This document shows, piece by piece, positions 2,420 to 50,905 of a stretch of DNA of 50,969 bases; within the stretch, counting starts at the first letter, position 1; each line of letters begins with the position of its first letter. The position numbers and the translations under genes are program-made. The notes below the pieces were generated by a model, which did not search any database, was not told the origin of the DNA, and saw only the letters and a list, made by a program, of their open reading frames with translations. This DNA is from Girardia tigrina (Eukaryota). The stretch is taken from assembly GCA_001938485.1 (NCBI GenBank), contig MQRK01220052.1, forward strand, positions 1 to 50,969, given 5' to 3'.

Positions 2420-2518
2420 TAAGAATATTTTTGAATGGTGTTTATTGTTTGTTGTTTGGTATGTTGTTTTAGGATTGTATTTCTCCCACCCAGATGGAAG
2501 ATTTATATTTTCAATGTT
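2420..2518 (+). repeat. degenerate partial Gypsy LTR copy
   Basis: GAATATTTT, GT-rich tract and TTGTATTTCTCCCACCCAGATGGA motif shared with the LTR at 17307. Confidence 0.6.
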
Positions 2519-3291
2519 TTAACCCTTAAACACCAGCCACAGTTAGAATCCTTCAGTCATTTGATTGATTTTTTTCATTTTTATAATTGGGATTAAGCAA
2601 ATTTGATATTCTAATTCTGTAAATAAAAAACATTTTCTGAATTTGTGTTATAAAAGTGTATAAAATCAGCTCAAACTTTAGAAAAATAGTAAAAATAAAA
2701 TTCTGCGATTTTTAACATTATTGAAGTTTTACAAAATCCGAGACAATAGTGCTCAATAAATAACCTATCAAATCAATGATTTTCAAATTTTTAATGTTTT
2801 CCCATTAATAGCCATCGCTGATGCATTGCATTATGCTTTCATTCAACCGAGAATCCCGTTGTTTCACGATGAAATAAGCCTTCAAAATTAGTGCTAGAAA
2901 GCGAGATTTAGAGGATTTCTTGTCAGTCAGAACCGGCTCAAACTTATTCTGAATTTCCACAAATAAATCTAATTCTTCAAAATTTGGATTTTAAAAATTG
3001 AAATTTCTATTATACTTTTTTTGGTTTTTATTTGAAAATTAATTTGTAATCGGTTTTTTTGAGTGAATCGGACAGTGCAAATGACAATATGTTTATTTTA
3101 ATTATTCGAGTTGTTTAAATGTAATAATTTTAATATGTTGACGCAAAAAAGTTTTTAAACAAAAAATTGAAGTCGCCATTATTTTTTCATTGAGTGCAGA
3201 TCAATTTGTGAGTATAAATAAATAAACATTAATTCTGCTTCGATTTTCGATTTTCAATTTATCCGGTGTGAATTTTTATTTTCAAATTGTA

Positions 3292-3524
3292 ATGGTAACC
3301 AAAGTCGACTTGAAAGTTGTTGTTTTGGGCAAAGAATGCATCGAAAAAACTACATTAGTCGATCGATTTTTGAACGGGAATGTCCAGGCGAATAATGCCT
3401 ATCAACCAACGATCGGGCGGCCTATCGCGCGCGCCAATTAAAGAACATCGATAATATTCCGATTATAATGGGCGTTTGGCACTCGGCAGGGAGCGAGCGA
3501 TATCAGTCAATGATACGAATTTTC
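3292..3524 (+). pseudogene. RAB24: Rab24 N-terminal fragment (frameshifted, G1 and G3 motifs mutated)
   Basis: MVTKVDLKVVVLGKECIEKTTLVDRFLNG..YQPTIG/AAY..IMGVWHSAGSERYQSMIRIF versus Rab24 [50 protein letters not shown]; frameshift near 3417; absent from the ORF track. Confidence 0.85.
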
Positions 3525-3542
3525 AAAAAAATCAATTATTGA

Positions 3543-3996
3543 TATCGTGAGCTGAGAGACGCTGAGCCGCGAATTCTCCACGACAAAGAAATCAAAAGGT
3601 CTCACAACTCTGAACTAAAGAAATGTTACGACAACGTATTGGTGCAATTGAAAGAGAAAATTACCAACACAAACGGCCAATCAGTCATCGTCTTACCGTC
3701 GATCAAATCCGATGTCGACACTCTCATGAACGCGCTTCTTTCGGTCATTCGAAATGGCGTTCTCGTGCAAGTCTCAGAGCATTATTGTGATCGCACTCGA
3801 CTGTCTCCAGAAACTGAATGCGTACGGTTACATCTCGAACTCGGCGCTCTATCGCGACTCCTCCAATGAAAGACTCATCGATAAGATCATCGTGTTCATC
3901 TGTGACGCCTTTCAGGACGGCCATTCCGGGGACGCCGTGCGGCTGCAGATCATCAAGGCCATTCTCACGATCGTCATCAACCCGAGTCTCGAGGTG
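3543..3996 (+). pseudogene. Sec7-family Arf-GEF BIG1/BIG2 (ARFGEF1/2) N-terminal DCB-region fragment, frameshifted
   Basis: RILHDKEIKRSHNSELKKC../FFRSFEMAFSCKSQSIIVIALDCLQKLNAYGYI..LIDKIIVFICDAF..VRLQIIKAILTIV matches the BIG1/2 N-terminus; frameshift at about 3727-3732; similarity stops at 3996. Confidence 0.9.
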
Positions 3997-5949
3997 CAAA
4001 TTTTAAATGTGACCCCCCGACCGGATGCTCGCTTCCCGTCGCCGGCGTGCCGCAGCCACAAAATCGCTGTGCCCGCTCTTGCACCATCACCCGTGATGGT
4101 TTGTCTTGATAACGCTCTTACAACTAGTGAACTTTATTCGTGAACATTTATTGAAGGCAGTAATTTTTTAAATAAGACTCAAAAAGAAAACATTTAATTT
4201 ATTGAGAAATTATCAAATTTAATTTATTTGATTAACATTCGGTATTTTTTATTAAGCGGTTCGATTGATTGATTGGAAATATTCTCCGATTTTGATTGAC
4301 AAAAACAACCTACTGATTCTCCAAGAAGGTTTCATCCACAATTATAATATTTCTGAAGAATTGGAAAACGATCTCATCATAAATTGAAATTTTCATAAGT
4401 TCAGCAATGATAGATATCATTGATAGTTATTCTAGTTCTACATTTACAATTGGCAAAAATTCCTCTATTTTGTATTCTAAAAATATCTAGAATGACTAAC
4501 GTTTTTAGTCATAAGATTCTGGATGGCGGATTCAAATGGATATTGCAGAAGTTCTAAGTCGCAGCAAGTATGCTATCTCAAAAGAATTCAGTTTTAATCG
4601 CAACTGCATTGGAGTAGGATTTGTTGGCAGAGTGTCCAAGATTGTTATTCATTCAAATCAACACTAACAACCCGAAAGATTAAAAAAAATAATTAAAAGA
4701 TTTTTTGTCAGATAATTTTGACAGTTTAAAAATGTAAATAACTACTTTTAAATTAAATTAATACATCTTCATCATAAATAGTATATTAAAATATTTTTGA
4801 AAAATAATTGGAATTGTAAATTGACAATGTAATTGAAATTTTTTTGAATAATTAGAGGTTTAAAAACAGAATTAAAATTTATCAATCAAAAACGATATCC
4901 AGTTACAAAAGTTTGTGGAGGACAATTGTCCCGGTGGCAATTCGAGTTGTGATATCAATAAATGTATTGAAAATCATATTAGAATTCTTAATACTATAAC
5001 CAAAATAAAACAATAAAATATTTCTTTTTTTCTTTGAAATTTTTTTTAGTATTTTAATATTTAATAAATGAACACTAAAATAAAAAATTATCAATATAGA
5101 TATTTACAAAATTTAAAATTTATCACAGTTTTTTTTAAAAAAAAATATTTATTTGTAATGTAATGTAATTTATTTTATAAATCTTTTTTTATAAACTTTT
5201 TAATAATATTTTTAATAACTATTTATTAAAGATTTTTTAATAAAATTGATTATCTAATTTGATTTTTGACAGAACTTTAAAATTGATACAATTATTTGAG
5301 AACTAGGACTCCTCAAACAAAATCGAAACATGTCCATCTCCTCTGAAAGATGTTTACAAATATCTTTATTTAAAATTTTTTAAAATAAATTTATGAATTA
5401 TTGGTCAATGTAGAGAAAATTATTTCTTTAAAATATCGTTTTCCTTTAAACAAATCCGAATAAAAAGCAAGTCATTCTTTGAAGGAAGAAAGAAAAATCT
5501 ATAAACCAAATTTTAAAAATTAAATTTGAAATGTCTTTTTAATATCTTGTTTCTGAAATAAAATTTTCTATTGTTTTTCCCTCAACATTAAAATGTATTC
5601 ATTCTGATACCTTTACACAGGAAGCTTTTCCCTTCAGCGCTGTAATTTCCCCGTCAACCATTATTTAGATTATGGTTCACGGATTTAGAATATAATTTTA
5701 ATTTTTAGAATATAATAATCTTTTGACTATTTTCGTCGGTTAAAAGCAAAACAACGTGAGAAGAAATAATAACAACACAACATACTCGATAAATATGCAC
5801 AAAAATATAGCAAAATATTCTTATAATTATTAGAAACATTAATATTTTTTCTGTCATTTTTATTAATATATTTATTATTAAGGATTTTTCGATCTGTTTC
5901 AGAATTTTTACAAACATTATTAAAAAAACAAAAATTAAAAATTTCGACT

Positions 5950-6333: not shown

Positions 6334-7047
6334 CGGTAAAAGTTTACAATTGGTAAAATTTATTTAATCAAATAGCATAATTAAAAATATTTCAAAATTT
6401 AATTTTATTTAAATATTAATTATAATAATTTTTAATTAAATATTTTCCAATTTTCTTGTTAAATCACAGAGAGAGAGTTTTAATATGTTTTATTGAAATA
6501 ATTTACGTTTTTTTTAAGTTGATAACTTTGATATCGTGGAAATGTTTTTAAAAATTATTCTTCTATGAATGCATTATTTAATCAAACCTTTAATAAACAA
6601 ATTTGAAAGATCACCAATTATAAACCTTTAAAGAATGTAATTTGGGATTTTCTATTTTCAATGTTTTGCTTTATAAAATTATTCATTTTATTTTAAAGCG
6701 AATTAATATTACTTTAAAAATAATATTTTAAATTTTAATAAAATCCTTTTTGTAAAGGAATATTGGTAAGGTCTAAAATTAAAATTGTTATTAAAGATTA
6801 TCAATTTTCTTTTTTATAATCGATTTCTGACTCGATGCATTTAAAATTCTGATTTGATATACAACGGTCGCTGCCAAGATTGAACACTTCCTAAATTAAA
6901 CAGCACCAAAGTGCATGATAAGAATATACATTAGTGTCCAATTTCGAGAGTGATTACTGTATATACTTAATCCTTTTATTCTCTAAGGGAAATATTAACC
7001 TTAGTTTAAAATATTAAGAATACCATTAAAATCAAATTTTATTGCAA

Positions 7048-7082
7048 TATATTTCGGTGGATTTTCCACCATCTTCAGACTG
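7048..7082 (-). ncRNA. minimal hammerhead-ribozyme-like motif in Penelope pseudo-LTR
   Basis: CTGAAGA-T-GGTGG-AAAAT-CCACC-GAAA-TATA on minus strand. Confidence 0.55.
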
Positions 7083-7669
7083 AATTAACAACAATTTCGC
7101 TGTCTTATATATAGCAAATTGATGATTATGCAAACATCTTGCGTAATAACTACTTAAATATTTTCAACTTGAAGAGAGAGATGACAAGACGCCTCTCCAA
7201 TGTATGTAGCGTTGAACCCATTACACGAAAATTCATAAACCGGATTGGAACATAAACTCAAAGGAGAACGAGATTTATTGCTGAATATACTTTGAATTTT
7301 GTAAGATTTAGAAATGATTTTTAAATTCAAATTTTTACTATCGATTGATTTTAAAATAGACGTCTCGTCATCTCTGTAAACGGATTCAGGAGCATGGACG
7401 ATTGGGTAATGGGAGTAATATTGCTGGACACATGAAGGGTTGTAAGTCGGAGGTGAAAACAACTAATTTTAAAATATTGTGCAGTAATTTTAAAAATTAT
7501 TGGGAAAGAGTTACTTGTGAGGCATTATTGATTAAATCACTTAATCCGTCCATTAATGTCCAAACAAGTCTCTCTTCCAATTTGTTGAAAATATTTAATT
7601 AGTTATTATGCAAGATGTTTGCATAATCATCAATGTGCTATTTATAAGATAGCGAAATTGTTGTTAATT

Positions 7670-7710
7670 CAGCCTGAAGATGGTGGAAAATCCACCGAAA
7701 TATATTGCAA
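7670..7710 (+). ncRNA. minimal hammerhead-ribozyme-like motif in Penelope pseudo-LTR
   Basis: CTGAAGA (7674-7680), stem II GGTGG/CCACC, GAAA (7697-7700), palindromic TATA; stem I weak. Confidence 0.55.
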
Positions 7711-8989
7711 TAAAATTTGATTTTAATGGCGTTCTTAATTATAAAATTTTGCCATTATTTTTAAAATTTAAAATATTAGGTCATCCCAAAGTCCTTTTAC
7801 ACTTGAGAAAAATTCCACTTATTTTGATCATAAAAAAAATGCAAAAATAGAGATAATGCTAGCTATAAAACTGGATTTTTAGTTTTGAAGAAAATTTTCG
7901 ACATATCATTAATATATGTTACTGGGGTATTTTAACAAGGCATTTACAGCCATGCTTAAATGTTCGAAGTGAGTTTCATAATAGTCAATTTACTGTACTT
8001 TCAATCTAAAGTTTGGACATAAATGACGATACCATAATGAAAAAAAATGTTTTGTTTTTTAATGAACGATTTTTTAAATAACATTTTTTTTTGAAAAATT
8101 AATAAAATATATTTTAAAGGGTTTATATCAACCTTTTGCGGCACTTATAGCCTCTATTTTCCGAGATATTGATTGATACAAATTGTTAATTGTTTCCTAA
8201 GGAATTTATGCCTATTTTACATTTAAAACAACATCCAGTTACTTAAGAAACAATGGTGGAGGATATCAATCTTATACTCGAATCTCTAAAATTGCTCAAA
8301 AATCATAATGCTCAATAATGTTGAAGCTGGAAATTGTTGTAGCCAGATCAGATTCTCAACTTCATAATAATATTCCTCATTCAATTTTTTACCAATTCTA
8401 GCTGTATAGATTAGTTCTTTATTATCTTTAATAATGGTGTTTCTCTCCAGAAATAATTCATAAACCATATGACGACCTTGGTCAACCTAAAATCCCTATA
8501 TAATCTCTTCAGTTAGTTCTTCTATGAAAATAAATCATTGGTTCGACAGATTTTTGAAATATACCACCCCAAATCCTGACAAAATCCTAGCCTCATTTAA
8601 CGATTTGAAGAAGACAGTCTAGATGAAAAGTTTCTATTAGCTATCTCCAAACGTTAACTCGGATGGAGGTCGGAAATAGGTTAAACAATGATTCGTCAGA
8701 GAAAATAAATTTTTTTCAAAGCTCAATGGAAAAATTTTGGAAGTTTCTACACCACTTTAAACACTTTAAAATTTGTCTTTGAGAGCAGAGGTTTTTTAAT
8801 TGTAGTTTTTTTGAGGATTCCAGATTTTTGTGGTAGTGATTCTTGAATCCGCGGTTTTGTGATCCTCTCTAATAATCCGATTTTGAGTCATTTGTTGAGG
8901 ACTTTTTTCTTCTCTTTCAAAAGCAATCATTATTTTTCAAACTGTACTCCTTGAAATGCCTTCAGATAGTTTATATTACACTAACGCTA

Positions 8990-16007: not shown

Positions 16008-16292
16008 CAGAATGTTGTAAGTTTGTTGTTTGTATGCTGTTTAGATTTGTGACTCTCCTACTCAGATGGGATTGATATGTTATTTGATTAATTATTTGAA
16101 TCTAATGAAATTAATTTAATGATATTAAATTAAAGTACTAATAAATTAAAGTTTGATAATTATGAATTTTAATAATATTTTCAGTAAAGATTTTAACTTA
16201 TTAAATTTAATATATTTTAAAAAGTAATGTTTATTTAAAAAATTACATAATGTCTTTTTATCCAATAAAAATTATGAGAAATTAAAATGTAA
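16008..16292 (+). repeat. degenerate partial Gypsy LTR copy
   Basis: GT-rich tract followed by TTGTGACTCTCCTACTCAGATGG motif. Confidence 0.55.
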
Positions 16293-17026: not shown

Positions 17027-17306
17027 TATTAAAATTTCCCCATTTATTGATTTTTTCATATTTAAATATTTAATCAAAAACTATATTAATCAAAGAAAGA
17101 TGACCACTGAAAATTGTTGTGAAGAATCTGTTTGTGTTGTAAATAAATGTTTGCATTCAAATTATGATGTTGTTAATAATTTAATTTACTTAATTTAATA
17201 ATTTACTTAAACCCCTCAAGACCAACTATTTTTTTTGAAGATAAAGGATGAGTCAAGTGTGAACATTCAATGTGTAGCAATTTGTATCGAAATATTATTT
17301 TGTTAT

Positions 17307-17790
17307 TGTGAGGAATATTTTGGATGTTCGATGTTTTGCGTTCGAATGTTGAATGTTGATTTATAATTGTGTCTCTCCTACCCAGATGGATGATTGGTAT
17401 TTTAATTCTTATTATCTGAAAATATGTTAAGTTTAAATTTATTTCTAATTTAAAATAATTGTAAAATTTAAAATAAGTTAATTAATTTTATTTACAATTT
17501 TTAATAAATAAATCGAATTAATATTTTTTAAATAATTAATAATTATTTTAATTTTAATCCGATAAATTTTGTGTAAATATTTTAACAAATTATTTATATC
17601 ACAATTGGCTAAAAATAATAAGATTAAAGTCATTAATCAATTAGTTAGAATGCAATTGTACGAAAGCTTTGACAAAGATTGTCTTAAGGACATTCAAAAT
17701 TGTTGTGTTAATAAAAATATAAAAAGTCAAATTGGTGTTCTTAATAGTTATGATGTATTCCCAAGAATTAATATTTCGTGCAAGAACTCA
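17307..17790 (+). mobile_element. Gypsy LTR (TG...CA) followed by a degenerate tRNA-iMet PBS
   Basis: starts TGTGAGGAATATTTT like the PPT-adjacent LTR at 50901; ends CTCA followed by TGGTAGCA (17792-17799). Confidence 0.8.
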
Positions 17791-18519
17791 TTGGTAGCAT
17801 AATCTTTGTGGTAGTCCGAATTAACTTGGGGCTGGACCTTAAGAGGTTAATACATTTATAAATGTATGTTGTCTAAACATGTTTAATATCAAAACAATAT
17901 TTATTGAAAATTAAAACAAAGTTTCTTTAATTATTTTTTAAGTTAATAAAATATAAATAATAATTACTTTTTCCAGAAAAAATTCCAAATTTAATCTTTC
18001 AAAATTTTATGGATAAATTATTTTTGCTAGACAGGAAAATTATTTTTTTTACATTTTTAATGACACAATTAACGGGCAATTATTTGCGCGATTAATGAAG
18101 GAGAAGGATAAACAAGATTACTGGAAATCGTTGAACATATTAATTAAATAATAAGTTTATTTTAATTTTCATATTTTAAATATTTTATATTTTTCTCAAT
18201 ATAAACTTTTTTTAGATTAGAAAAAGTTATTAATTCCTAACATATTAATTAAAAAGAAGACTTATTAAGTAATATATTATTTTTTTAATAAATTAATTAA
18301 AATAAATAAAACATTATTAGAAATATATATCAGAAAAATACAATTGTAATTATTAAATTTGTTTTAAATTAAAACCTTATTAATGGTAATGAATAATTTA
18401 TTCCTTAAAAATTGTCTTTCTTTGAATAAAGGACATTTTAACATTTTGTTCAATATAATTGAACATTAATTGTACTATATTTCATTTTGTACTTCAAAAC
18501 AGAGGACTGGGTCATGACT

Positions 18520-18959
18520 GTTATTAAGAACACCGATTTGACTTTTCGTATTTTTATTAACACAACAATTTTGATTGTCCTTAAGACAATCTTTGTCAAA
18601 GCTTCCGTACGAGTGTATTCTAAACTAAATTGATGAATAAATTAATTCGTATTTTTTTAGCAAATAAAGAAATAAATAATTTATTTAAATATTTACTCAA
18701 AACTTATTGGATAGAAATTAAAATGATTATTAATTATTTAAAAAATATTAATTTGATTTATTTATTAAAAATTGTAAAAATTAATTAACTTTTTTAAAAT
18801 TTTAAAATTATTTTAAATTAAAAATAAATTTAAACATAACATATTTTTAGATAATAAGAATTAAAATATTAATGATCCATCTTGGTAGGAGAGACACAAT
18901 TCCAAATCAACATACACATTCAAACACAAAAACATCAAACATTTAAAATATTCCTCACA
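18520..18959 (-). mobile_element. Gypsy LTR, inverted copy
   Basis: colinear reverse complement of about 17307-17745. Confidence 0.85.
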
Positions 18960-19550
18960 CTTGTGAAGAACTATGGAAAGCTTTGCTGATGATTTTGTAA
19001 ATTGGTATATAAACTTCTATATGCTCTGATGACTTGATCAACCTATAAACTTGGTTGAGTTGTTATATGACACCAATGTTGATTGAAATTGAGGCTTTAG
19101 AAAGGTTTTAGGCTTTAGATTGATTGTGAAAGAATGAACTAAAAAACTTTATATATATTTGACAAAACATTGGCTCAACTTACAGTAAAGAGGATCTCTA
19201 AATAGTGTGAATTCGTTTGAATAACTGCTGATATTTTTTAACTTTTGATGTATCTAGTCTTAGCCTTTATGTAACTTTAAAATGGTATGGTATTAAAATT
19301 TATATTATATATTATATAAAAACAATTTTTTATTGAAGGAGGATGTGATTACACTTTTTAATATTGTTCTAGAAGAAAACTTAAATACAATTGATCTATG
19401 TTTTACATCTTCTTCTAAAAACAATTATATCACATGATAAAATAGAAAATGCAGTCGATGGCGGATGACTAGAATTCAGTTACCTCGATTTTCGTCTTTA
19501 GCTGAAGTTTTTCAAAGTCTTAAAATAATTGTCATCAAAAAGAATATGTA

Positions 19551-26629: not shown

Positions 26630-27350
26630 AGCCCTAGAATCTGTCTTCTCCTTTTGTTCTATTCTTATTTGTTTCCAGACCTTTTCGCCAACCTTATAAA
26701 TTCTTCGTATCCCATTTTCCTCTCGCTTGTTTTTTTCTTTTAATCTTATTCTGATATCCTTCCGGTTTATTTTGTTGTTATCATAACACTTTTATCTGTC
26801 TATTTTCTTCTCAAATACGACTTATGTTGGACTCTACCCTATCGTCTTTTGTTTTTTTGCATTTATAGCAAATTCCACTTCCGATAATATGACTGCCCAA
26901 CTTGCAGCATTTCTCTCTTTCAAACTTGCATGTATGAACTCTCTTATTGTCCGAAACTTCTTTTCAATTATCCCATTTGTGTTATAGTGACATGGGCTAG
27001 AGAAAATTAATTTGATACCTTTTGCTTCCAACATTTCTTTCACTTTTTTTGCTTCGAAACATTTCCTGCAGTCTACGTGGATCTCTATAGGTGCTCTAAA
27101 TTGTAGTATCCATTTCTGTAATATCATTTGTACTATTGCCTCTTCATCTTGTCTTTAAATTGATGTAGAGCTCACGTATTTACTGAAATGGTTAATTATT
27201 CCAAAGGTGTACCTTTCTTTCCTTACTGTCTCATTCCATGGTTAGCAGACGTCTATACAAACTTTCTCAAATATTTTGACGCTGTTATTTTTATATTTTC
27301 TTCCTTTGTTTTTGTGGTTATTGTCTTTGTCCGCTGACACTCCGTACAAG
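26630..27350 (-). mobile_element. Gypsy integrase relic (second copy)
   Basis: CTECQ zinc-finger end, KWILQF..P.EIHVD, SSPCHYNTNGIIEKKFRTI, LSEVEFAIN. Confidence 0.88.
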
Positions 27351-27368
27351 GTCTTCTAGCTGTAACTC

Positions 27369-28960
27369 TTAGCTTCTTTCAAGATTTCCTTTCACTACTG
27401 TTGTGGGACCCATGTAACGGTCATCTTCGTTAGAGTCATTTTCCTTCTTAATCAATACTCGGTCTTCTACTTCAAAAATTCTTCTTGTCTCTATTTCTTG
27501 TTCAATATCTTTCAATTTTTTGTTATCTTCATGATTGTTTTTCCACCAATGTTTCAATTTTCTTCCAAATACTATCTCGACTGGTGACACAACTATTGAA
27601 GCTTTTAGAGTATTATTTAATATAAACTCGATTTCTGATAAAGCTTCTGTCCAATCTTTATGATCTCCATCCTTCATTCTAATATTCAAAACATCTCTGA
27701 TTTTCTAATTTTCTAAATGTTTTTTTCATCTTGACTAGTCGCTGCATCCAGGCTAATATATCTACTGAACTGGTCAATTATTGTCATAATATATTTGCAT
27801 CCATTTATATTTCTTTTGAATGGTCCACAAAAGTCAATGTATATTTTCTGGAAAGGTTCATCCGCTGATTGCTTTATATGCCTTTCTTTCGTTTTATTTG
27901 TTATTGCCTTCCCTTTTGGACAATTTAAGCAACTTTGAACAATTTCTTGTATAAATTCTCTCACATTTCCATGTCAAAATCATCTCGTAGGTAGTTAAAA
28001 ACCTTTTTGCTACCTACATGACACAACTTTTTGTGAAATTTTTCAATAACATTTGCTCAATCTGTCTTTGGGATTCAGTATTTATTATCTTGAGTTATTA
28101 CGATATCATTTTTAGTGCCCATTTTCTTGTTCTGCCTTTACTAATATCCTCGATTATCTGTTTTATTTCCTTATTATTCTTCTGCCATTTAAAACCATCT
28201 GATTCTTCGTTTAGTGCCAGTATTCTTGTTTTAATCTTTCCTTAGCCTCTTCATGCATTGTCTGACACTGATTGCACGATTCGCACGAGTTTCTTTACAT
28301 TGCATCCTCATTTGAATGTTTTCACCTTTTCGATATTCCATTTTCATGTCAAGAATACTCAGAAAATTTATACATGTTTGGAACTGTGGTGTGATAGGGT
28401 TCTTTGTAGTCATCATAAACGTAATAACTTTATGATCTATTCGCAGCAAAAATCTTTTTCCATACAAGAAATGTTTAAAATGCTGTGTGAAATAATAAAT
28501 TGCGAGTAGTTCTTTCCTTGTAATTCAATAGCCTAGTTCATGTTTATTCATTTTATGTGATCCATACGCAATCAACCTTTCTCTTGTACACTCGCCTTTC
28601 TGTGATAACACCGCCCCTATCATATCAAAACTTCCATATGTATCAAGTATAAAGTCTTTGACAAAATCAAGATATGTTAAAATCGGAGCTTTAATCATTC
28701 TTTCCTTTAGTTTTTGAAAAGCTTCATCACATTCTTCAGTTCAAATCACTTTCTTATCTTTATTTTTACCACAAAAACCTTCCAACACTTTTGCATATTT
28801 TGCGTAATCCTTTATAGATTTTCTGTAGTAATTTGTCAAGCCCAAAAAGCTTCGTAAATGTTTAATGTATGATGGGCTTTGAAACTTGCTTATCGCATCA
28901 ATCTTTGATTTATCTGTTTCAATACCATCTTTACTTATGACATATCCTAAGAATTTAATC
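27369..28960 (-). mobile_element. Gypsy pol relic (RT end, RNase H, integrase)
   Basis: FLGYV..GIETD, LRSFLGLTNYYRK, FILDT..IGAVLSQ, YGKRFLLRIDHK, PFQKIYIDFCGPF, SPVEIVFGRK. Confidence 0.93.
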
Positions 28961-29680
28961 TTAGAATTTAAAGCACATTAGAACTGATGAAATTATTTCG
29001 ACACAAATTGAAAACAATCTTTTCTATTTCACAATTTTTATTTACTAAATTCAAATTCGACAACATTGATTTTTTATTTAATTCTGATGAACATTCATAT
29101 TTTTCAAATTTATTTTTAAATATTTTTTTTTGATTTTAAATTTGTGATTAAAATTCTTAATCAACAATAAACACGAAAATATACACACACACCCAAACAC
29201 AATTCTTATTTTCCTAAACATTACATACACACATATTCACAAACATATCACAATCAACAACAAACAAACAGATTTAAATTGGTCGATTCAGACACACACA
29301 TAAAATTGAATCGATTGTATTTCCAAAGAAAAAGATTTAGTAATTATTCGAAAACGATCTGATTAAACGCCGCAGTAATTTCGGAGCACTAAATGGAAAT
29401 TGTTAACAAAAGAACGACTCCTACAAATCATTAATTTAAATACTTATTTTAATTATATATATATTTTTAACTTAAATTTAATTTAATTACTTTTTAGTTT
29501 TTTCTAATTATTTAAGTTATTAATTTTATTTTACTTTTAATTATTTAATTTAGTTATTTTATTAATTATATATTTTATTTAATTTATGTATGTATTTTTT
29601 CCCAAACTGGCAAAATGTTCGATCAAACATTTCATTTTCTGCTCCAGCATTAAAATGTATTTAATTGTTTTATAAAAAAG

Positions 29681-31373: not shown

Positions 31374-31478
31374 ATGGAGGAAATCGAGTCGCCTTATTTT
31401 TTATTAAACTGGCTTCGAGGTGGTGCTGAAGAAATGCAATTGTCGGCCCTCGAACAACTGTATCTGGTACTCTTGCAA
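31374..31478 (+). pseudogene. HECTD1: HECTD1 E3 ligase extreme N-terminal fragment
   Basis: MEEIESPYFLLNWLRGGAEEMQLSALEQLYLVLL versus HECTD1 [36 protein letters not shown]; no continuation recognised. Confidence 0.72.
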
Positions 31479-34332
31479 TACGAGACATGTTTGTGTCAAG
31501 ATTTCGATATTTCATTTGTGCTTCCTCACGTAATGATCAATCGATTGGTCAATACCAAAGGATCATTAATTACCATTTGTATGAGATTGTAGAATCCCAA
31601 TATGAAAAATCCCATTAGTCGGATCAAATTAAAACGGGCCCAGCACATCGAGAAAGCTTCCCTGCGTAACCCTGTTACCTCGAGGCAACCTGAGTGTCGG
31701 GCGGAACAGGGTCTATTCTAGAAATCTAAAATCAAATAATATGAAAATTTATATTTACTATATTTTATGAAATAAAATTATCAAAAATGAAAAATTCCAA
31801 ATAATCAAGAGGATGAAGTAACGTGATAGATTATATCTCTGTTGTGAAAGATTCGCTTTTTAGGATCAAGATTATCATCATTCCACTTCATCTGGCTAAC
31901 ACCTCTGACATTCTACCTTGTCTGTGCCTACCCTACCAGTCATCCCTTTTATGGAAAATTCATGTTTTAAAGTGACATATACTACTTTTGATAACACCTT
32001 ATGATAACGTTAATTGTTAACCTAAAATAGCAAAAATTTATTGTTATATGTTTCTTAAACTTTTAAATTAATGGAAAATTTTTTAATGATAGAAAACTAG
32101 TTAATAATAATTATTATTATAATAGTAATAATTTTAAAAATAATAATAATAATAATCTCTTTTTAAAATCTTATAGGTGGAAGTCATTATTTATAACATA
32201 AATTAATTAATATAATATGATAATACTCCAATATTAAAACATATAACTTTAGATTATGAGTTTGATTAAATATATTATTTTAATTATATTTGAAATAGTT
32301 TACACCAAAATGTATTTATTTCTGCTGTTGATTATTTGTACATAATATTATTTTCATGTAATTTTGTATTCTTTGAAAATTAATTTTGTTTTAATTGAAG
32401 AATAATAAATAATCAACAGTTTATTTTATTAAAGTCAATTTGCTATTTAAAAAATGTTAAAATTTTATATTTATTTTCAAGTGGCATTTGGAAAATAAGA
32501 AATGATGGCTTATGGCACTCGAAGCGCTAATGGAAATGAGCAATGTACTGCATGAGAACGTATTGAAACACTCGAAGAGCTCTAACGGATACGAATGAAA
32601 TGCTCGTTTTATTTTTATAAAATAATTTTACATAAATTAAAAAATATATATTTTAATGTTTTTTATTTTATTTATATTAACTAAAAGTTATATTTAATGT
32701 CATTTAGTATTCTATGTTCATCTGAAAGTGAATTAAATGGAGAATTATTTAATTTGGAAGTAAAAAAAGATGGTAAAATTTACACTAATATTTATCATTG
32801 AAAGTTTAACAATCTTCTGCAATAGGAGAATTAGTGTACAGCTGCCATATCTGGGGTAACTGGTACATTGAGATAAAATCCTGTAAAATTACATTAAAAT
32901 TATAAAAATTATTTAGCACTGTGGTGCTCAAAAAATAATGAGCAAAAAGAAAAATTCCAAGAAAACGATAATTGTTTAAATAAATTAAATGGAATGCGAA
33001 CAATTTTTAAAAAAACAATTTAAATGAAAAATAAATGTTTTTGTTGATTTGATTGCATGTCAATTCATAAATTTCGTGGTAATCTCGACTGATTTCTTAT
33101 CAACAATCCGATGGGAATATGGATTGGTTGAAATTGATCGATTTCCTCGGGCCGAACCCCGTACCATCACTCCAGATCCGACGTGTTTAACAGATCGACA
33201 TGACCAATCGGATCGACAGAAACCGGACGGACGTGACGATCACGCTGTTTGTTACTCGGTGACATAACGAACCGGTCGAACCGAGTCTAGTGTTATTACG
33301 TGCAGCTCGGCGGCGAACAACCACGAGTTACCGCGGTTGAATCTGGTTGTGCCCATCGCTCTCGTAACAGCTTGCAGGAATTCCCGTTCCTCGCAGTTAT
33401 ATTAATGAAGTTTTATGAAAAAATATGGTTTTTTAATAATTTATTACTTATAGAAATAAATATGTGTAATAAGAAATGAATATCGTGGAAAAAAACTGAT
33501 ATTTCAGGTTCCTTTTAAAAAAGTTCGACAAAACTCTTACACAGACATATAATTGTTGATAAACGAATCGCTAAAACTATTACTGACTCTACTCATGAGT
33601 TTTGATCAACCCCATAAAGCCTTTGTTTTTTCTTTAATTTGGCTCAACACATATTTAAGATATTTCGTGCATGAAGAAAGTTTAATAGAATAAGTCATTA
33701 ATTTGAATGTTTTAAAAAAATTTACAGAATTAAATCATAAATTAATTGTAATTATATAAAATTTCTTTTATTCTAATTCCAAGAAAACGATAATTGTTTA
33801 AATAAACTAAAAATGGAATGCGAACAATTTTTAAATGTACACTATGTACACTATGTACTTCATTGACTTGCTGGGGTGGTGCATGTCAATCTCCAGAAGA
33901 ATTGATATTCGGTGCTTGATATCTTCTCGTAACCATTTAGAAAAATAAGAATTATCTGAAGAATAATTGATTAGCGTAGTAAAACAACATTAAAAAATTA
34001 GATATCTTATATTATATTTTATATTATATTGTGTTTGTTAGGGTTCCGAAATATACATGTGAACACTTTTGATAAAATTTTATAAAGTCTTTATAAAATC
34101 TTTTATTCTTCTATTATTTGGGAATTTTTAAAAGATAAACTATATAAATGTAACCTTTTATAATAGTGTGATCAATTTAGATTGGTAATGCAGGGTTTTT
34201 CATTTTTTATTATTGTTAAGAATTAAAAATGTTAGGAAAATTTTTGAAAGAAAGTTATATTAAATATGTACAAATTAAAATTTTTATATAATTAAATATG
34301 TAACATTCGAAAAAATAAAATTACTAAAATTA

Positions 34333-38929: not shown

Positions 38930-41402
38930 CAGTTAACTCTATCTATTTTCACGAATTTGGAACCGAAAAAATTGAAAAAAAAGTGAAATTATAAAAATGG
39001 CTATGTAATTTCACATATATAATTTAATAAAAAAACAACACGAGTAAATATCATATTATATTATTAATCCACCAAATATCAAAAATTTACTTTAAAAATC
39101 CAATATAATCATAACAAGAAAATTCTCAAATCATACAGTCATAAAAATCCATAAATCAGAATAATCGAAGAGTGTCTTTTGCTTTGAATTTTTGCTTCTA
39201 ATTTGATTAACATCAATTTTTAATCTTTTTAATATTCTAATTTCATTATTGCTATTTTGTTCTTGTTCCTCTAAAAGTTTTATCGATGTGTTACATGTAT
39301 TTGTTGCTTTTTGATAAGTTGTGGGAATTATATGGCTCTGTGAAGATGACGATGCATTTGTTTCCAAAAATTCATCATCTAAATTGTTTGTTAATTCATC
39401 ATTATTTAACTCAACATTTAGTTTATACTCTTCTTTATCTATAACCTCTTCAATAGAAGTAAATTCTTCAACTGTCATTGGATTTTTAACATTAATCTTC
39501 TTAATAAAGTCTTCCGATTCTTTTTTGTCTTTTCGAGCAATGCTTGTCTTGTCCAATGAACTCAATTCAGACTTGATAAGTTTCGTATGCTTCCAACAAT
39601 TTTGAATCGTTTCAGTGGATACATCCTCTCACGCACCAATAATATATTTAATTGCGTGTCATAAATTAAGTTTATTATTAATAAAAACATTATTATCTGC
39701 CAAAGAATCAAGTAGATAATTTAAAAATCTTTTTCGATATTTTCTTTTGAATGATGCAATGATTCCCGGCATCGAGTGGTTTTAACCTTGCGGTTGTATT
39801 GGGTGGCAAAAAATGAACATTTATAGATTTTAAGTTTATATCATTAACATTATGTGGTAAGGTGTAGAAATAATAGAATCTTCATATTTTTATCTTTCTT
39901 GTAAATTTCATTATCAAATTTTGTAATCCATTCTCTAAATATTAATGTTGTCATCCACGCGTTTGTATTTGACTTGTAAATGAAAAAAAAGTTTTTCAAA
40001 TTAATATTCTTAAAATATCCTGTGTTTTGAGACTTACCTATGATGAGTGGCTCATATTTTAGTTTTCCCGTTACATTTGTCCATAAAGCTATAGTTATGT
40101 GCTATTTATCTTTTTTCTTACTAGCTATTCTCTTGGATACTAATTTGTTGTCAGACTCTTATCGGTAGTAAACTGCTGTTTCATCAAAATTATAAATATC
40201 ATTAGGATCGTATTGGTTTATTAAATTTAGGAAAATAGGTAAGGATTAGTCAACAAGATCTCCATCAACATTTCCTACCTCTCCGTGAATGTGTCATTTT
40301 TTAATCCCAAGTCTTTGTTTGAAACCTGAGAGGCATCCATCTGAAAAATTAATTCTTTCCTTTTCCGGAATGCGTAATTTATCACAAATTCTTTTTCCTT
40401 GATTAGAAAAAGAATCATCAATTATTATCAATCTCATTTCGTTTGTATAAAACTATTCAATCAAACTTTTTCTAATTGTGGATACCTGACATTACCAGTT
40501 CTAAATGAATTTGGATTCACTATCTGGCATATTTCGATATCAAATTGAGGAGAATTAATGATTTTAATCCAGGAAGCCAATTGTTCATGTTTTAGTTTCT
40601 TGTTCGCTTTGGAGTGTTTGTAGAGTTTTGTTTTTCCGCTTTGGTGAGTGAAACATTGGACTTTTAATATGGACCATGTTTTGATGGGTTTGGATTTGTT
40701 AAATTTATTTAAAAATTTTGAAATATTACAATATTAAAAATTTTAATATTACAAGCGCACTCACTATTTGACATCTCTCTTGATCAATATATTTCTGATT
40801 TCATACTAATTATTTTCAAAAAATGAAAATCTGTTAATAAAAATTATTAATTATAAAGAATCTAATTGGTTGAAATTAAATCTAAACATTTTTTTAAAAA
40901 AAGAACATATTATATTAATATATTAAAATTTTAAATTACATTAAAAACATAAATAATACATTCAAAAATTATTTTAAATCTTTTTTACTTTACAATTAAA
41001 TTAAATTATTTTTAATTAGTAAGAATCAAAGAAAACATCAATCATCCATTCGTGCAGGAGAGGCACAATCCGAATCAACATTTTACATGCACAAATATCA
41101 ACACACAATTCAAAACATTCCTCACAATATTAAATTGATTGAAATATTTAAACAATGATGACAAATTATTTTTCAAAAGTCAAATATACGTAATTTATCA
41201 CAGATTCTTTTTCCTTTATTAGAAAACATTTCATCAATTATTATCAATTTCATCAAATTTTATTAGGTTAGTGTGAAATTATCAAATTTTGAAATTAAAA
41301 AATTTTTAAGCCTAAAAACATAAAGACATGATTTTTTTCGAAAAAAGTGTGTAATTGTCTAATTGTAAAATTATCGAGTGTGAAAATAGATAGAGTTGAC
41401 TG
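38930..41402 (-). mobile_element. pogo/Tigger (CENP-B-like DDE_1) transposon, decayed
   Basis: TIR CAGTTAACTCTATCTATTTTCAC / GTGAAAATAGATAGAGTTGACTG, TA TSD; FSDGCL..FKQR, HGEVG, IYNFDETA, HFLPPNTTARLKPLD at about 39131-40680. Confidence 0.93.
40760..41126 (-). repeat. Gypsy LTR copy inserted in the pogo element
   Basis: TGTGAGGAATGTTTT start and TTGTGCCTCTCCTGCACGAATGGATG motif; left boundary approximate. Confidence 0.65.
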
Positions 41403-43754: not shown

Positions 43755-44430
43755 AAAATTTAAAAAATAATGGCAAAATTTTATAATTAAGAACGCCATT
43801 AAAATCAAATTTTATTGCAATATATTTCGGTGGATTTTCCACCATCTTCAGGCTGAATTAACAATAATTTCGCTGTCTTATATATAGCAAATTGATGATT
43901 ATGCAAACATNNNNNNNNATAACTAATTAAATATTTTCAACAAATTGGAAGAGAGACTTGTTTGGACATTAATGGACGGATTAAGTGATTTAATCAATAA
44001 TGCCTCACAAGTAACTCTTTCCCAATAATTTTTAAAATTTCTGCACAATATTTTAAAATTAGTTGTTTTCACCTCCGACTTACAACCCTTCATATGTCCA
44101 GCAATATTACTCCCACTACCCAATCGTCCATGCTCCTGAATCCGTTTACAGAGATGACGAGACGTCTCTCCAATGTATGTAGCGTTGCACCCATTACACG
44201 AAAATTCATAAACCAGATTGGAACATAAACTCAAAGGAGTACGAGATTTATTGCTGAACATACTTTGAATTTTATAAGATTTAGAAATTATTTTTAAATT
44301 CAAATTTTTATTATCGATTGATTTTAAAATAGATGATTTCAATTTTTTGTAACCTTCTGAATAAGGAACGATTAGCGAATATCCAATTGCCCCACGTTTT
44401 TGGTTAGGTATAAAATTTTTCACATGTCTA
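43755..44430 (-). mobile_element. Penelope-like element 3' part: GIY-YIG endonuclease and pseudo-LTR
   Basis: ORF 43923-44423 NLVYEFSCNGCNATYIGETSRHLCKRIQEH..EALLIKSLNPSINVQ. Confidence 0.93.
43818..43855 (-). ncRNA. minimal hammerhead-ribozyme-like motif
   Basis: CTGAAGATGGTGGAAAATCCACCGAAATATA on minus strand. Confidence 0.55.
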
Positions 44431-45899
44431 GAAAAAAATTATTTTCCTCTTTTAGTGCATTGGTAATGCTTGAAAAACGTGGTTGTTTTTATAAAAAATT
44501 TTTTTATTAATAATATTATTTATTATTTTTTTAATTTTAAAATTAATCCAATTTTATTTTAAAAATTTTCAATATAAATTTAAAAAATTTTAATTATATA
44601 TATCTTACAATTTATCTCGAGTTTGCTTGTCGAGCGCGATATCAATATTTTCGGTAATATTAAAACTTCTAAAAAATAGTTGGTTGTTAAAAAAAATTTC
44701 AATTGTGTCATTAAAAGAAAACTGAAAATTTTTTTTAAAAAAAGCTTCTGAGGATTTATTCTTTAAAAATAAATCTAAAAGTCCCTGCGTTTTTTTAAAA
44801 TTCTTAGTTTTAATTTCTTTGTTGAAAAAAATATTAATATCATTTTCAATATCGTACGATTTAATATGCTTATCAAAATTAAAATTAAATGGCTTTTTTC
44901 TCAATAAAAATATTAAAAGTATTCAATAATAAACTAATATCCTTTAAATGAAATAAATTATTTACGATGTATCCTTGTTGATTCAATCGGGACTTGTGAA
45001 CATTTTTATCCGTTGGTTGGGACCAGTTACTGGTTTGATCGCTTTGATTATCAATTAAATTGTGTTGATAGATTTGGTTCCCAGTTTTATTATCGGTTTG
45101 TCCAGTTGTGAGGTCAATTTGAAGAGACCGGGATTTATCATTATCAGTTATTTTCTTTTTGAATTGCAATCGGTCCGCTTTCATCGTTATACAAGCATTC
45201 ATCAAGCTAATAAAGGCTGGTCCAATGGGTATGCATGCGCTAATTTTTATATATTCAGAATCTACTCATTAAGACGAACCTTTTGATATATAAAATGTCG
45301 GATCTAAAAGTCTCGCATCATAACGTAATTATGTATTAAAGGTCAAATTAAATACCTTCGGAATTCTTAATGAAATTGGACTCATTTTGTGGACATTTTT
45401 TATGCTGATTACGAATATGCGATTTATTTTGCAATATATTTTATTATTATCAAGTTATTAAAAAATAATTTTTTAAATTCAAAATTTTTATTGAATAAAT
45501 ATTATTAAATAATTGAAGATTATTAAAAAGATAAAATCAATTCATTTTCAATAAATGAGGTTTTTAAAATATTCTTCACCTGCTGTTACAACGTGTTGAA
45601 GACGGTATTTAAAATTTCCAATAGTTTTCGCAATTATTTCTTGATCAATGTAATGATATAATTTCATTTCATAAAATTAAATTATACACTTCAAAAAAGA
45701 AAGAAATTAAAATAAAGTAATTATTTCTTGTTTAAATAAACCGATTTTAATAAAATGAAATTAACAAAAGAAGTTTTCTGTGACCGACAACATGTATCTG
45801 AAAATTTATCTCGTCACGAAAAAATCTCGATGCATATAGAAAATTGTACTGCATGTTAAAATTTAGAAATAAATTTAAAAAAAAATTAACCATTGATAA

Positions 45900-46639: not shown

Positions 46640-49000
46640 TATCCGTTCTTTGTCTGCATTTGTTGAGCCGGATCGAAGAGCTTATTTGTGTGCCTGGTGT
46701 AGTCGTTCTAGTTTGCCGTTACTTTGTGGGTGATATGGAGTGGTGTGTTTGTTCAATGTCGTATCGGTAGCACAGATTTCGGAAATCTGTTGATATGAAC
46801 TGTCTCCAATTGTCACTGATAATTTGCTCTGGTGTACCGAAACGCGATATCCATTCTTTTTCTATGATATCAGTAACTTCTTTAGCCCCGATATCCCGCA
46901 TGGGAAGACTTCCACCAACATGTGTCGCGGTCGATCATGGTCAAGAGGAACTTCTTTCCTCTGATTTCTTTGAGAGGTCCAACTAGGTAGATGAGAATCA
47001 CTCAGAGTTTTCCTCTGTTCGTGATAAGGTCATGTTGGTGCGTCTTGTGACTTTATTGACCTGGCAATTTTGACAATTTCTGATCCATTTTCAAATTTCA
47101 CTCTTCTTGTAAGGCGACACATAACGTTTAGTCAAGAGTTTAATTGTAGCCTTTGCTCTTCTATGATATCAACAAATTTCCTCTGATTTTCTTTCGATTC
47201 ATCACGATCGTTTCGTCGATTTTTGAACCGGTCGCGGCTGTCGTCATCGGAATCGTCTCGTTAATTGTGGCGGGAATTTCCGGATCGAATGTATCATCGA
47301 CAAATCAAATCAACAGACTCAATTTGCCGACATTTCTTTCACCGATAATCAGAATATTCAATATCGTAATAAAAGCCTCTATAATTTTTCTGAATTGGAT
47401 CCGAGAAATTTGATTGAACTCAAAAACTGAGAATCGAATCCGATGAGTTGCTGAATTTCCACTTCCATCATTCAATTTCAAACCATCGCAAACTTTATGA
47501 GAGACAAACATGGCGACTCAAAATTCAATTTTATTTAAATTTCCAGTCAAAAACTCGCGCCAAACAAAAATTTATTATTTCATTTAAACAAATCTAATAA
47601 TTTTTTCATATAATTTACAAACAAAAACAGTATTTTTTCAAATAATACAATTAATTTTTTTCAGCAATAATTGTGATCAAAATAACTTAAATTTAATTTT
47701 TTTTCACTTTCAAAATTCCTCAAACAAGGAGTCTGTAATCACCGCACCATAACGAGAGGAGGGGACCAGTCACTGTTGCTCTCTCGTATAATGCCGCCTT
47801 TAAGTAGCAAATCCAACTGTATTCAAACAATTCATAAGCTGCTTTCGAGAAAATGGTGGACCTGATGTTTGAATGGAAAGTGGTGGTAGGCTGATCAGGT
47901 TTTGTATTTCCATCGGCTTCCGGAGCAGTTTTTAATTTTTGCAGTCTATCAGAAGCTTGAATTTGGCTAAATAATCGGAGCTCAAGATTGGTCGGCGAAC
48001 GTCTGCGACTGTGAATCTCCATGGGAAGTCTTCATTTAATACTGGAATATGGAACTTAAGAAGTTTCTCACCGAATGTTTTGATTTTGGCATTGTTGGTG
48101 GATATTAATGCGCGACTAGTTGCTGTTGAGTCTGGCAGAAAAGTAGCTTGAGGTAAAACGCTAATATCTGCTCCTGAATCGTTAAAAAATGAACATACTA
48201 ATTTTTGGACGTGGCAGGGATGATGGAAATAACGTTGATCTTCATCTTGTATCGAAAGAGATTTTTAGGGTACTTAGTGTTCGAATTCAATGGGTCCCTA
48301 GCTCTTTTCCTGGAAAGTTTTCTGCTCTGTAGGAGCACGGTGTTTAACATTTACCCGTTAATTTACCAAATCTTTGATGATAGAAACACAGTCATGATTC
48401 ATCGGTGTGAGATTTGCTGAGTCGATTCTTTATACAATTGATTATCGATTTAATCTCTTCTATTGCCATGTTAGAAGACTGATTTTTGGGCACGATTGTT
48501 ATCAATTGCGTATCATTTAAGGAGAAATGATCATCGGCTTTGACACTGAGTGCCTCCAGACTGAGCGATTGGAAAATTATCAGGTGGTGTCTAATTAAAG
48601 TTGGGAGAGCAGCTAAGAATTGCTGCTTGATTAATTAACACTTGTTTAGATCTGCATTGGGTTGGATTATTCGGTGGAATTTCTTTAATTCGTCTAGCAA
48701 TTTGATGGGTTTCAATTGATGTTCGGTTCCGAGTTCGGTCAAGAGGCGTAAAGCTTGGGCTGCAGTCATCGTATTTTCCTTTGGAGAGCCTGTTTCAGTT
48801 TTCCATATGAATAATTGCAGGAAGGATCCATGGCTGATGTATGTGTATCCAGAATTTCAGGAGGTAGGCTGGTGAGAACATGGAAATATTTTGTCTTCTG
48901 GCTGGAAATGTTTTCCAGTTCGAATGCGGCTTTGACTTGAATGAACCAGTTAGCAATATTTTTGCGAATCTGACTTGAATGTGACTGGACTCAGTCACTT
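46640..49000 (-). mobile_element. decayed Gypsy element (gag, protease, integrase; RT/RNase H missing)
   Basis: gag-like LKPIKLLDELK..QQFLAALP..LEALSVKAD, DSGADISVLP at about 48150-48185, KATIKLLTKRY..CQNCQ, WISRFGTPEQIISD. Confidence 0.85.
47263..47385 (-). pseudogene. RAB18: Rab18 N-terminal fragment
   Basis: ITILNILIIGERNVGKLSLLI*FVDDTFDPEIPATI versus Rab18 [36 protein letters not shown]. Confidence 0.85.
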
Positions 49001-50537: not shown

Positions 50538-50905
50538 ATTGAACGGAAACCCTGCCAGAAATAGAGTTTATGCTAAATAGCACAATTCAGGCAACCACAG
50601 GGATATCTCTAGCAGAAATAATTTTTGGTAGAAAACTAAGACATTGGTGGAAAAACCCCGATGGAAAAAGACCTGTCGAGAAGGAAATGAATAAAAGCAC
50701 GACACAGACGAAACGAGTATTCCAAATAGGAGATAAAGTGCTTATAAAGAAAGAAAACGTAACGAAGGATGAGGATCGATATATGGGCCCAGCCACAATA
50801 AAGAACCGACGACATGAAAGAAGTTACGAGATACAATTAGATGATTGCATAATATTGATCAGAAATGTGGAATGGCTAAAGCCATTTAAATCGAGGGGGA
50901 TGTGA
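50538..50905 (+). mobile_element. Gypsy integrase C-terminus with polypurine tract
   Basis: LPEIEFMLNST..AEIIFGRKLRHWW..FQIGDKVLIK..RYMGPA; paralogous to 27369-27689; PPT GAGGGGGA at 50893-50900. Confidence 0.9.

Follow-up and report, generated by a model that had tools for sequence, protein, structure and literature searches.

The capture of gene fragments by mobile elements has been described chiefly in plants, bats, flies and primates, and its carrier is normally recognisable. During 5' transduction by SVAs, of which SVA_F1 is an example, a non-autonomous unit whose 3' part stays constant takes up the 5' exon of a host gene and spreads in its altered form (PMC12593883). Retrocopies mediated by LTR elements are more often truncated at the 3' end than at the 5' end, and two genes may be fused in them (Tan et al. 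2016, PMC5131818). For Helitrons, stepwise capture and internal loss are known (PMC3288121), bat Helitrons favour the 5' ends of genes (PMC4224331), and Pack-TIRs occur in animals (PMC8277862).

In the window, i.e., the whole stretch of 50,969 nt analysed here, the block at 3292-4089 represents a decayed copy of a short, repeated cassette whose tail is fixed and whose gene starts are interchangeable (Table 1). Two-gene, 3'-truncated chimeras are already known; what is new here is the tiny fixed end combined with interchangeable gene starts, which amounts to a nested series of captures. The nested series raises the interest of the locus above that of a lone chimeric pseudogene, although it is lowered by the state of this copy, which is a pseudogene and encodes nothing functional.

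Table 1. Features of the cassette and its borders, in window positions.
Feature	Position	Strand	Remarks
Upstream of Rab ATG	3208..3291	+	Possible Rab 5' leader, weakly indicated; 5' limit of cassette undefined
Rab GTPase 5' fragment	3292..3525	+	ATG start; frameshift at about 3411-3420; 3'-truncated; damaged GTP-binding motifs
Fold-back inverted repeat over Rab/BIG join	3498..3547	.	Linker 3531-3547 complementary (14/17) to Rab 3498-3514
ARFGEF/BIG (Sec7 family) 5' fragment, DCB domain	3546..3999	+	At least one frameshift; no introns at relatives' sites
Shared GC-rich end module, about 90 nt	4000..4089	+	Follows the same BIG tail in six database proteins
Perfect 7-bp hairpin	4083..4100	.	Final 7 nt of the module form the left arm; right arm in unshared flank
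CTAG then T	4124..4127	+	23 nt past hairpin; possible Helitron-like 3' end, in this copy only

The gene fragments and their setting

The cassette consists, all on the plus strand, of a Rab GTPase 5' fragment, an ARFGEF/BIG N-terminus and a GC-rich end module. The preliminary description had called the block much more GC-rich than its flanks, which is borne out by a GC content of 47.5% in the cassette against 25.6% and 23.8% in the 1-kb flanks, and its GC3 of 0.48-0.75 makes the composition one of coding type. The window as a whole is AT-rich (GC 28.4%), and transposon remains are abundant in it, including hAT, Tc1/mariner, pogo, Gypsy-type integrase and RNase H, and GIY-YIG. Elsewhere, a second GC- and CpG-rich island (33050-33400) is bracketed by near-identical direct repeats of about 60 nt (32953-33011 and 33775-33835), and 21-nt GC-rich tandem repeats at 1-754, with palindromic motifs that we take to be X-box-like, adjoin a fragment of a hAT dimerisation domain.

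The Rab homology extends over 78 codons from the ATG, is broken by a change of frame and ends before the 3' part of the gene, as had been described. The first half gives weak matches to Ras/Rab GTPases in the PDB (22 matches, E 0.012-0.064, with RhebL1, Rab7 and Rab6 at the top) and to Roc (6.7e-4) and Ras (4.7e-3) in Pfam, both under the curated cut-offs; the second half by itself falls short of significance (lowest E 0.43), its top matches still being Rabs. The P-loop and WDTAG motifs are damaged, with substitutions at invariant positions. The Rab24 subfamily named in the preliminary description did not emerge from any of the tools used. Judged from its motifs, the fragment probably belongs to Rab24; its residue 38 is Gln, in agreement with dog Rab24, for which Gln is named at this residue (PMC3916225), and the database matches include no Rab24 sequence. 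A literature search returned no paper with both Rab24 and Ser67. Upstream of the ATG lie a hexamer resembling a splice donor (at 3208) and a pyrimidine tract reaching 3285 without AG (an imperfect acceptor); the hexamer occurs 27 times in the window, counting both strands (0.27 per kb). Together, these two signals faintly suggest that the Rab gene has kept an intron in its leader here, which would count against an RNA origin.

An N-terminus of BIG1/2 on the same strand, shortly after the Rab piece, had likewise been recognised correctly. Its larger part, 3733-3999, matches BIG1 structures (E 2.6e-16) and Pfam DCB (1.6e-8) and is thus homologous to the DCB domain, and 3570-3692 matches a BIG profile made from 39 matches (E 9.5e-6, three frames tested). 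The two parts match in different frames, therefore a frameshift lies between about 3690 and 3733, in line with the earlier account of a frameshifted and 3'-truncated gene. In a tree of the fragment, which took in the 69 of 148 matches that span the full piece, the window groups with five flatworm proteins (one monogenean, two tapeworms and two flukes) with a support of 95/97, the bootstrap not having settled, and its branch is long, which suggests no more than a fast-evolving animal, perhaps a flatworm. No parent was found among 46 candidates when the BIG piece was searched against longer proteins, nor among 383 candidates for one-frame read-through of the Rab second half, the BIG first half and another module frame. 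No BIG match above about 49% identity occurs among the best 150 of 153 matches listed from the representative library.

The BIG piece had also been described as intronless, and this holds at sites where relatives are read through into introns. Read-through after QIIK, seen as Val and unrelated sequence, affects 29 of the 122 BIG matches that bear the motif, and read-through after CFQ affects 3 of the 78 with a CxxF motif, one of them a named tapeworm protein; the window has no intron at either site. A count at another intron site (25/126) was discarded because it included true homologues. As far as sequence can tell, the absence of introns favours a spliced template; alternatively, they may have been lost from the BIG gene in the host lineage, the parent gene not having been found. 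The earlier dismissal of an RNA origin for want of 3' ends was too strong, since LTR-mediated retrocopies are mostly 3'-truncated (PMC5131818), and it is further weakened by a BIG piece that lacks conserved introns.

Such 5' gene fragments may be common in this fast-evolving, possibly flatworm genome. At 31374-31720 on the plus strand, a 72-codon frame from an ATG, with internal deletions, presumably resembles the N-terminus of the E3 ligase HECTD1 and may be a second 5' gene fragment. It has weak atlas leads to ARM/TRIP12-N only and no Pfam match, and a stretch of moderate GC richness that contains a stem-loop and CTAG comes after the frame.

An end module shared with other genes

The third GC-rich piece of the preliminary description is present, but its limits, given as 4010-4140, are corrected to 4000-4089: the sequence common to relatives stops at 4088-4089, and 4090-4143 is not common to them. 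Together with the BIG tail (3970-4089), the module recurs in at least six database proteins with 34-35 of 40 residues identical, and every residue difference is one base from the window codon. When the frame at 3730-4140 was searched against the representative library, P0008 and P0009 matched the end of the query and not the BIG core, among the best 150 of 153 matches listed. Of 37 candidates in a search with 3961-4140, two matched, P0009 and P0166, and the cluster of P0166 added P0167-P0170; P0170 consists of the upstream gene only and does not contain 3970-4089.

The genes in front of the module differ among these relatives. In P0008, a sideroflexin stands there, represented by its 5' part (profile positions 2-226 of 319, E 4e-77). 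P0009 and P0166-P0169 have another gene, which is propeller-like by a weak lead only: for P0166, atlas matches under 0.9 point to WD40/propeller clusters, neither Pfam nor the PDB returned a match, and the single-sequence model was useless (pLDDT 29.6). This gene may resemble Nup214. In P0166-P0169, window positions 3546-3584 and 3669-3680 are kept directly before the 3970-4089 part. The BIG piece of these proteins thus starts at the same point as that of the window, retains one further short stretch, and has lost two internal segments by deletion. In P0166-P0169 and P0009, the propeller-like gene is in frame with the BIG bits and the module, which gives open chimeric frames of 307-421 residues that are candidate young new genes if transcribed.

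All partners are sense-oriented, and the Rab, BIG and sideroflexin pieces are N-terminal and 3'-truncated. Because the module stands behind Rab/BIG, sideroflexin and propeller-like genes, the cassette is a repeated one, whose 3' end is fixed and whose different upstream genes number three or more. The six relatives come from three sources; five of them are 98.8-99.7% identical upstream, may be alleles or assemblies of one locus, and reduce the count to three independent structures, not seven. All six depart from the window at 4089, where one simply ends. Beyond this point, the tails of the five others are unrelated to that of the window (0/5 below P 0.05), and only one of ten pairs among the relatives' own tails reached P 0.037, the rest being unrelated. 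For the P0008 tail, a possible homology with window sequence past 4089 was considered and rejected as not significant (P 0.09). The differing tails could stem from splicing or assembly, the contigs being 1.4-2.1 kb long and either genomic or transcript.

These relatives make an artefact scarcely credible, whether through chimeric assembly or through errors in the sequencing of a genuine locus. The scaffold is gapped, and the Rab/BIG join was seen in no other sequence searched, but sequences from three sources repeat both the BIG/module join and the point at which BIG starts, and the lesions include substitutions at invariant motifs. In addition, no further Rab or BIG exon was found among the 51 long ORFs of the window or the 43 short ORFs of 2500-5200.

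The origin of the module was sought in Pfam (in the frames tried), Rfam, plasmids, phages and prokaryote genomes, with nothing significant. Rfam gave no match to a hammerhead ribozyme, as would mark a Penelope-like or retrozyme end, and the module folds no better than shuffled sequences (z -0.6 to -1.2). Elsewhere in the window (7013-7769 and 43756-44438), there are two Penelope-like 3' fragments, 95-99% identical, that contain a GIY-YIG domain and terminal pieces in inverted orientation.

Joins, ends and the manner of capture

The fold-back repeat over the Rab/BIG join is the sole such repeat in the 852-nt cassette, was not equalled in any of 1500 local shuffles, and had a counterpart of its type in 1 of 60 simulated cassettes. 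The hairpin at the module end is the only perfect 7-bp hairpin in the cassette and was matched in 7 of 1500 local shuffles, with one somewhere in 14 of 60 simulated cassettes; for both repeats, the thresholds were post hoc. The two inverted repeats are placed exactly on breakpoints and resemble what snap-back end joining would leave, as snap-back synthesis leaves inverted repeats at breakpoints (PMC5728401). They speak for a patchwork made by repair with no dedicated carrier, in which synthesis-dependent microhomology end joining or template switching at forks would have linked existing retrocopies or intron-poor gene pieces, which were then duplicated. The many internal deletions in the relatives and the lack of any element signature agree with such a patchwork, which nevertheless leaves unexplained why a single 90-nt module, always with the same end, turns up behind three genes and why the pieces are all 5' parts in sense; the 3531-3547 arm, moreover, could alternatively be old BIG leader sequence. 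We consider a patchwork of this kind unlikely.

The serial capture of gene 5' ends by a carrier, as proposed earlier, is supported as regards serial joining to a repeated carrier, given the BIG tail and module behind two other genes. The suggested identity of the carrier (Pack-MULE-like, Helitron or LTR element) fared less well: none of these is shown, no pair of terminal inverted repeats (TIRs) surrounds the block, adjacent arm remains facing outward or being unpaired, and no second copy of 4000-4089 exists anywhere in the window. No target site duplication (TSD) was detected as a repeat of at least 7 nt between 2801-3291 and the first bases after 4087, where the undefined 5' end of the cassette bears on the result; no run of at least eight A occurs in 4090-4400, and no retroelement end was found at the cassette.

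A Pack-MULE or Pack-TIR origin would call on a family with long inverted repeats, remains of which lie at 2136-2195, 2422-2524 and 4898-4993 and match the arms of the element at 17300-18960. However, the first and last of these face outward, 2422-2524 has no downstream partner, the arm match at 4898 is weak (E 0.45), and the shared end at 4089 has no TIR; even with Pack-TIRs known from animals, this origin is very unlikely. An inverted match between 2132-2192 and 4939-4999 was examined as the TIRs of the cassette and rejected for its wrong orientation. The element at 17300-18960 itself is Foldback/MULE-like, with inverted arms of about 440 nt that are 88% identical, and further decayed arm copies lie at 16022-16084 and 40971-41133.

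In a chimeric retrocopy mediated by an LTR element, template switches among packaged mRNAs would have joined the genes, and 4008-4089 would be a very short or truncated 3' LTR. Retrocopies of this kind are known to join two genes, to lack introns and poly(A), to be truncated mainly at the 3' end and to transpose again (PMC5131818), and 4008-4089 starts with TG, ends with CA and has a sharp end. LTR-element remains are present in the window. But the module is only 82 nt long and TG...CA is a 4-base signal; LTR sequence on both sides of the cassette is lacking, the module being single upstream and elsewhere in the window, and there is no internal element sequence or clear polypurine tract. An LTR-mediated retrocopy seems quite unlikely. 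Decayed LTR-retrotransposon pol and gag-like pieces are located at 26800-29000 (-), 46700-49000 (-) and 50543-50905 (+).

A Helitron derivative could have its plus-strand 3' end at the hairpin and the CTAG followed by T (4124-4128), or its minus-strand 5' end at 4089, with end bypass. The combination of hairpin, CTAG and T arose in 6 of 3000 shuffles, neither TIR nor TSD was found at the cassette, and the stepwise capture, internal loss and preference for gene 5' ends cited above would suit the cassette. By contrast, the spacing from hairpin to CTAG is 23 nt here and 11 in Helraiser (PMC4778049), and neither the CTAG nor the hairpin is common to the relatives, which depart in mid-hairpin. The window has four plus-strand and three distinct minus-strand sites of the pattern, so that six other sites share the same hairpin-CTRR arrangement; 2801-3291 contains seven ATC sites, and at 4089 the minus strand lacks a TC start. 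Capture of DNA should also keep introns, and those of relatives are absent here, the parent gene not having been found. We regard a Helitron as an improbable carrier.

The reading that we prefer, tentatively and as a possibility short of probable, is an RNA-mediated process in which a non-autonomous element acquired the 5' parts of mRNAs one after another. First, the module of about 90 nt would have been linked to the 5' part of a BIG transcript after splicing, and the BIG-module unit would have spread and acquired, on its 5' side and likewise in sense, the 5' parts of further genes: Rab in the window, sideroflexin in P0008 and the propeller-like gene in P0009 and P0166-P0169. The unit may have landed in a host gene and been re-copied from a transcript begun at that gene's promoter (5' transduction of the SVA_F1 type), or a reverse transcriptase may have jumped from the unit onto another mRNA; either route would give 5'-side addition of intronless pieces that contain a start. 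The ends would have been joined via short fold-back repeats, with neither poly(A) nor target duplication, and the copies would afterwards have lost internal pieces. Mobility, the RNA step, the order of events and the enzyme are all points that we infer. A bolder version, in which a very short mobile module of about 90 nt, of no established class, repeatedly collects the 5' coding parts of housekeeping mRNAs and stacks them in order in a fast-evolving, possibly flatworm genome and yields young, intact chimeric frames of 293-421 residues, is doubtful. The order and mechanism of capture should be readable from the nested series across genome copies, and the long chimeric frames, if transcribed, would be a working source of new genes, or of small RNAs directed at the parent genes, in a lineage that has been little studied.

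Comparison with known systems

No matching cassette was found in searches of the open flatworm and myxozoan literature, or in the gene-capture literature searched, including PMC13317346. Like maize and bat Helitrons (PMC3288121, PMC4224331, PMC4778049), the cassette would combine stepwise capture, internal losses and a bias to gene 5' ends; no TSD was found, and the copy in the window has a hairpin and CTAG near its end. Unlike Helitrons, its shared end is neither CTRR nor TC, its hairpin is unshared, and introns are apparently missing. With Pack-MULEs and Pack-TIRs, it shares GC-rich pieces of host genes in AT-rich repeat DNA (PMC8277862, PMC5861414), although no inward-facing TIR pair or TSD of 8-10 bp was found at it.

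Among RNA-based systems, LTR-mediated chimeric retrocopies resemble the cassette in their intronless, 3'-truncated two-gene pieces, the lack of poly(A) and repeated copying (PMC5131818), but they carry LTR-element sequence on both sides, whereas only one short end module is seen in the cassette and all its partners keep their starts. SVAs have poly(A) and TSDs and use L1 (PMC12593883), and none of these marks is found at the cassette, which further differs from them in its two stacked genes, coding 5' partners of 230-1000 nt and a module of only about 90 nt. In joining a constant 3' part to an added host 5' part, however, the cassette is SVA_F1-like (PMC12593883). Overall, the cassette behaves like known gene-capturing elements, but the full set of defining ends was found for none of them.
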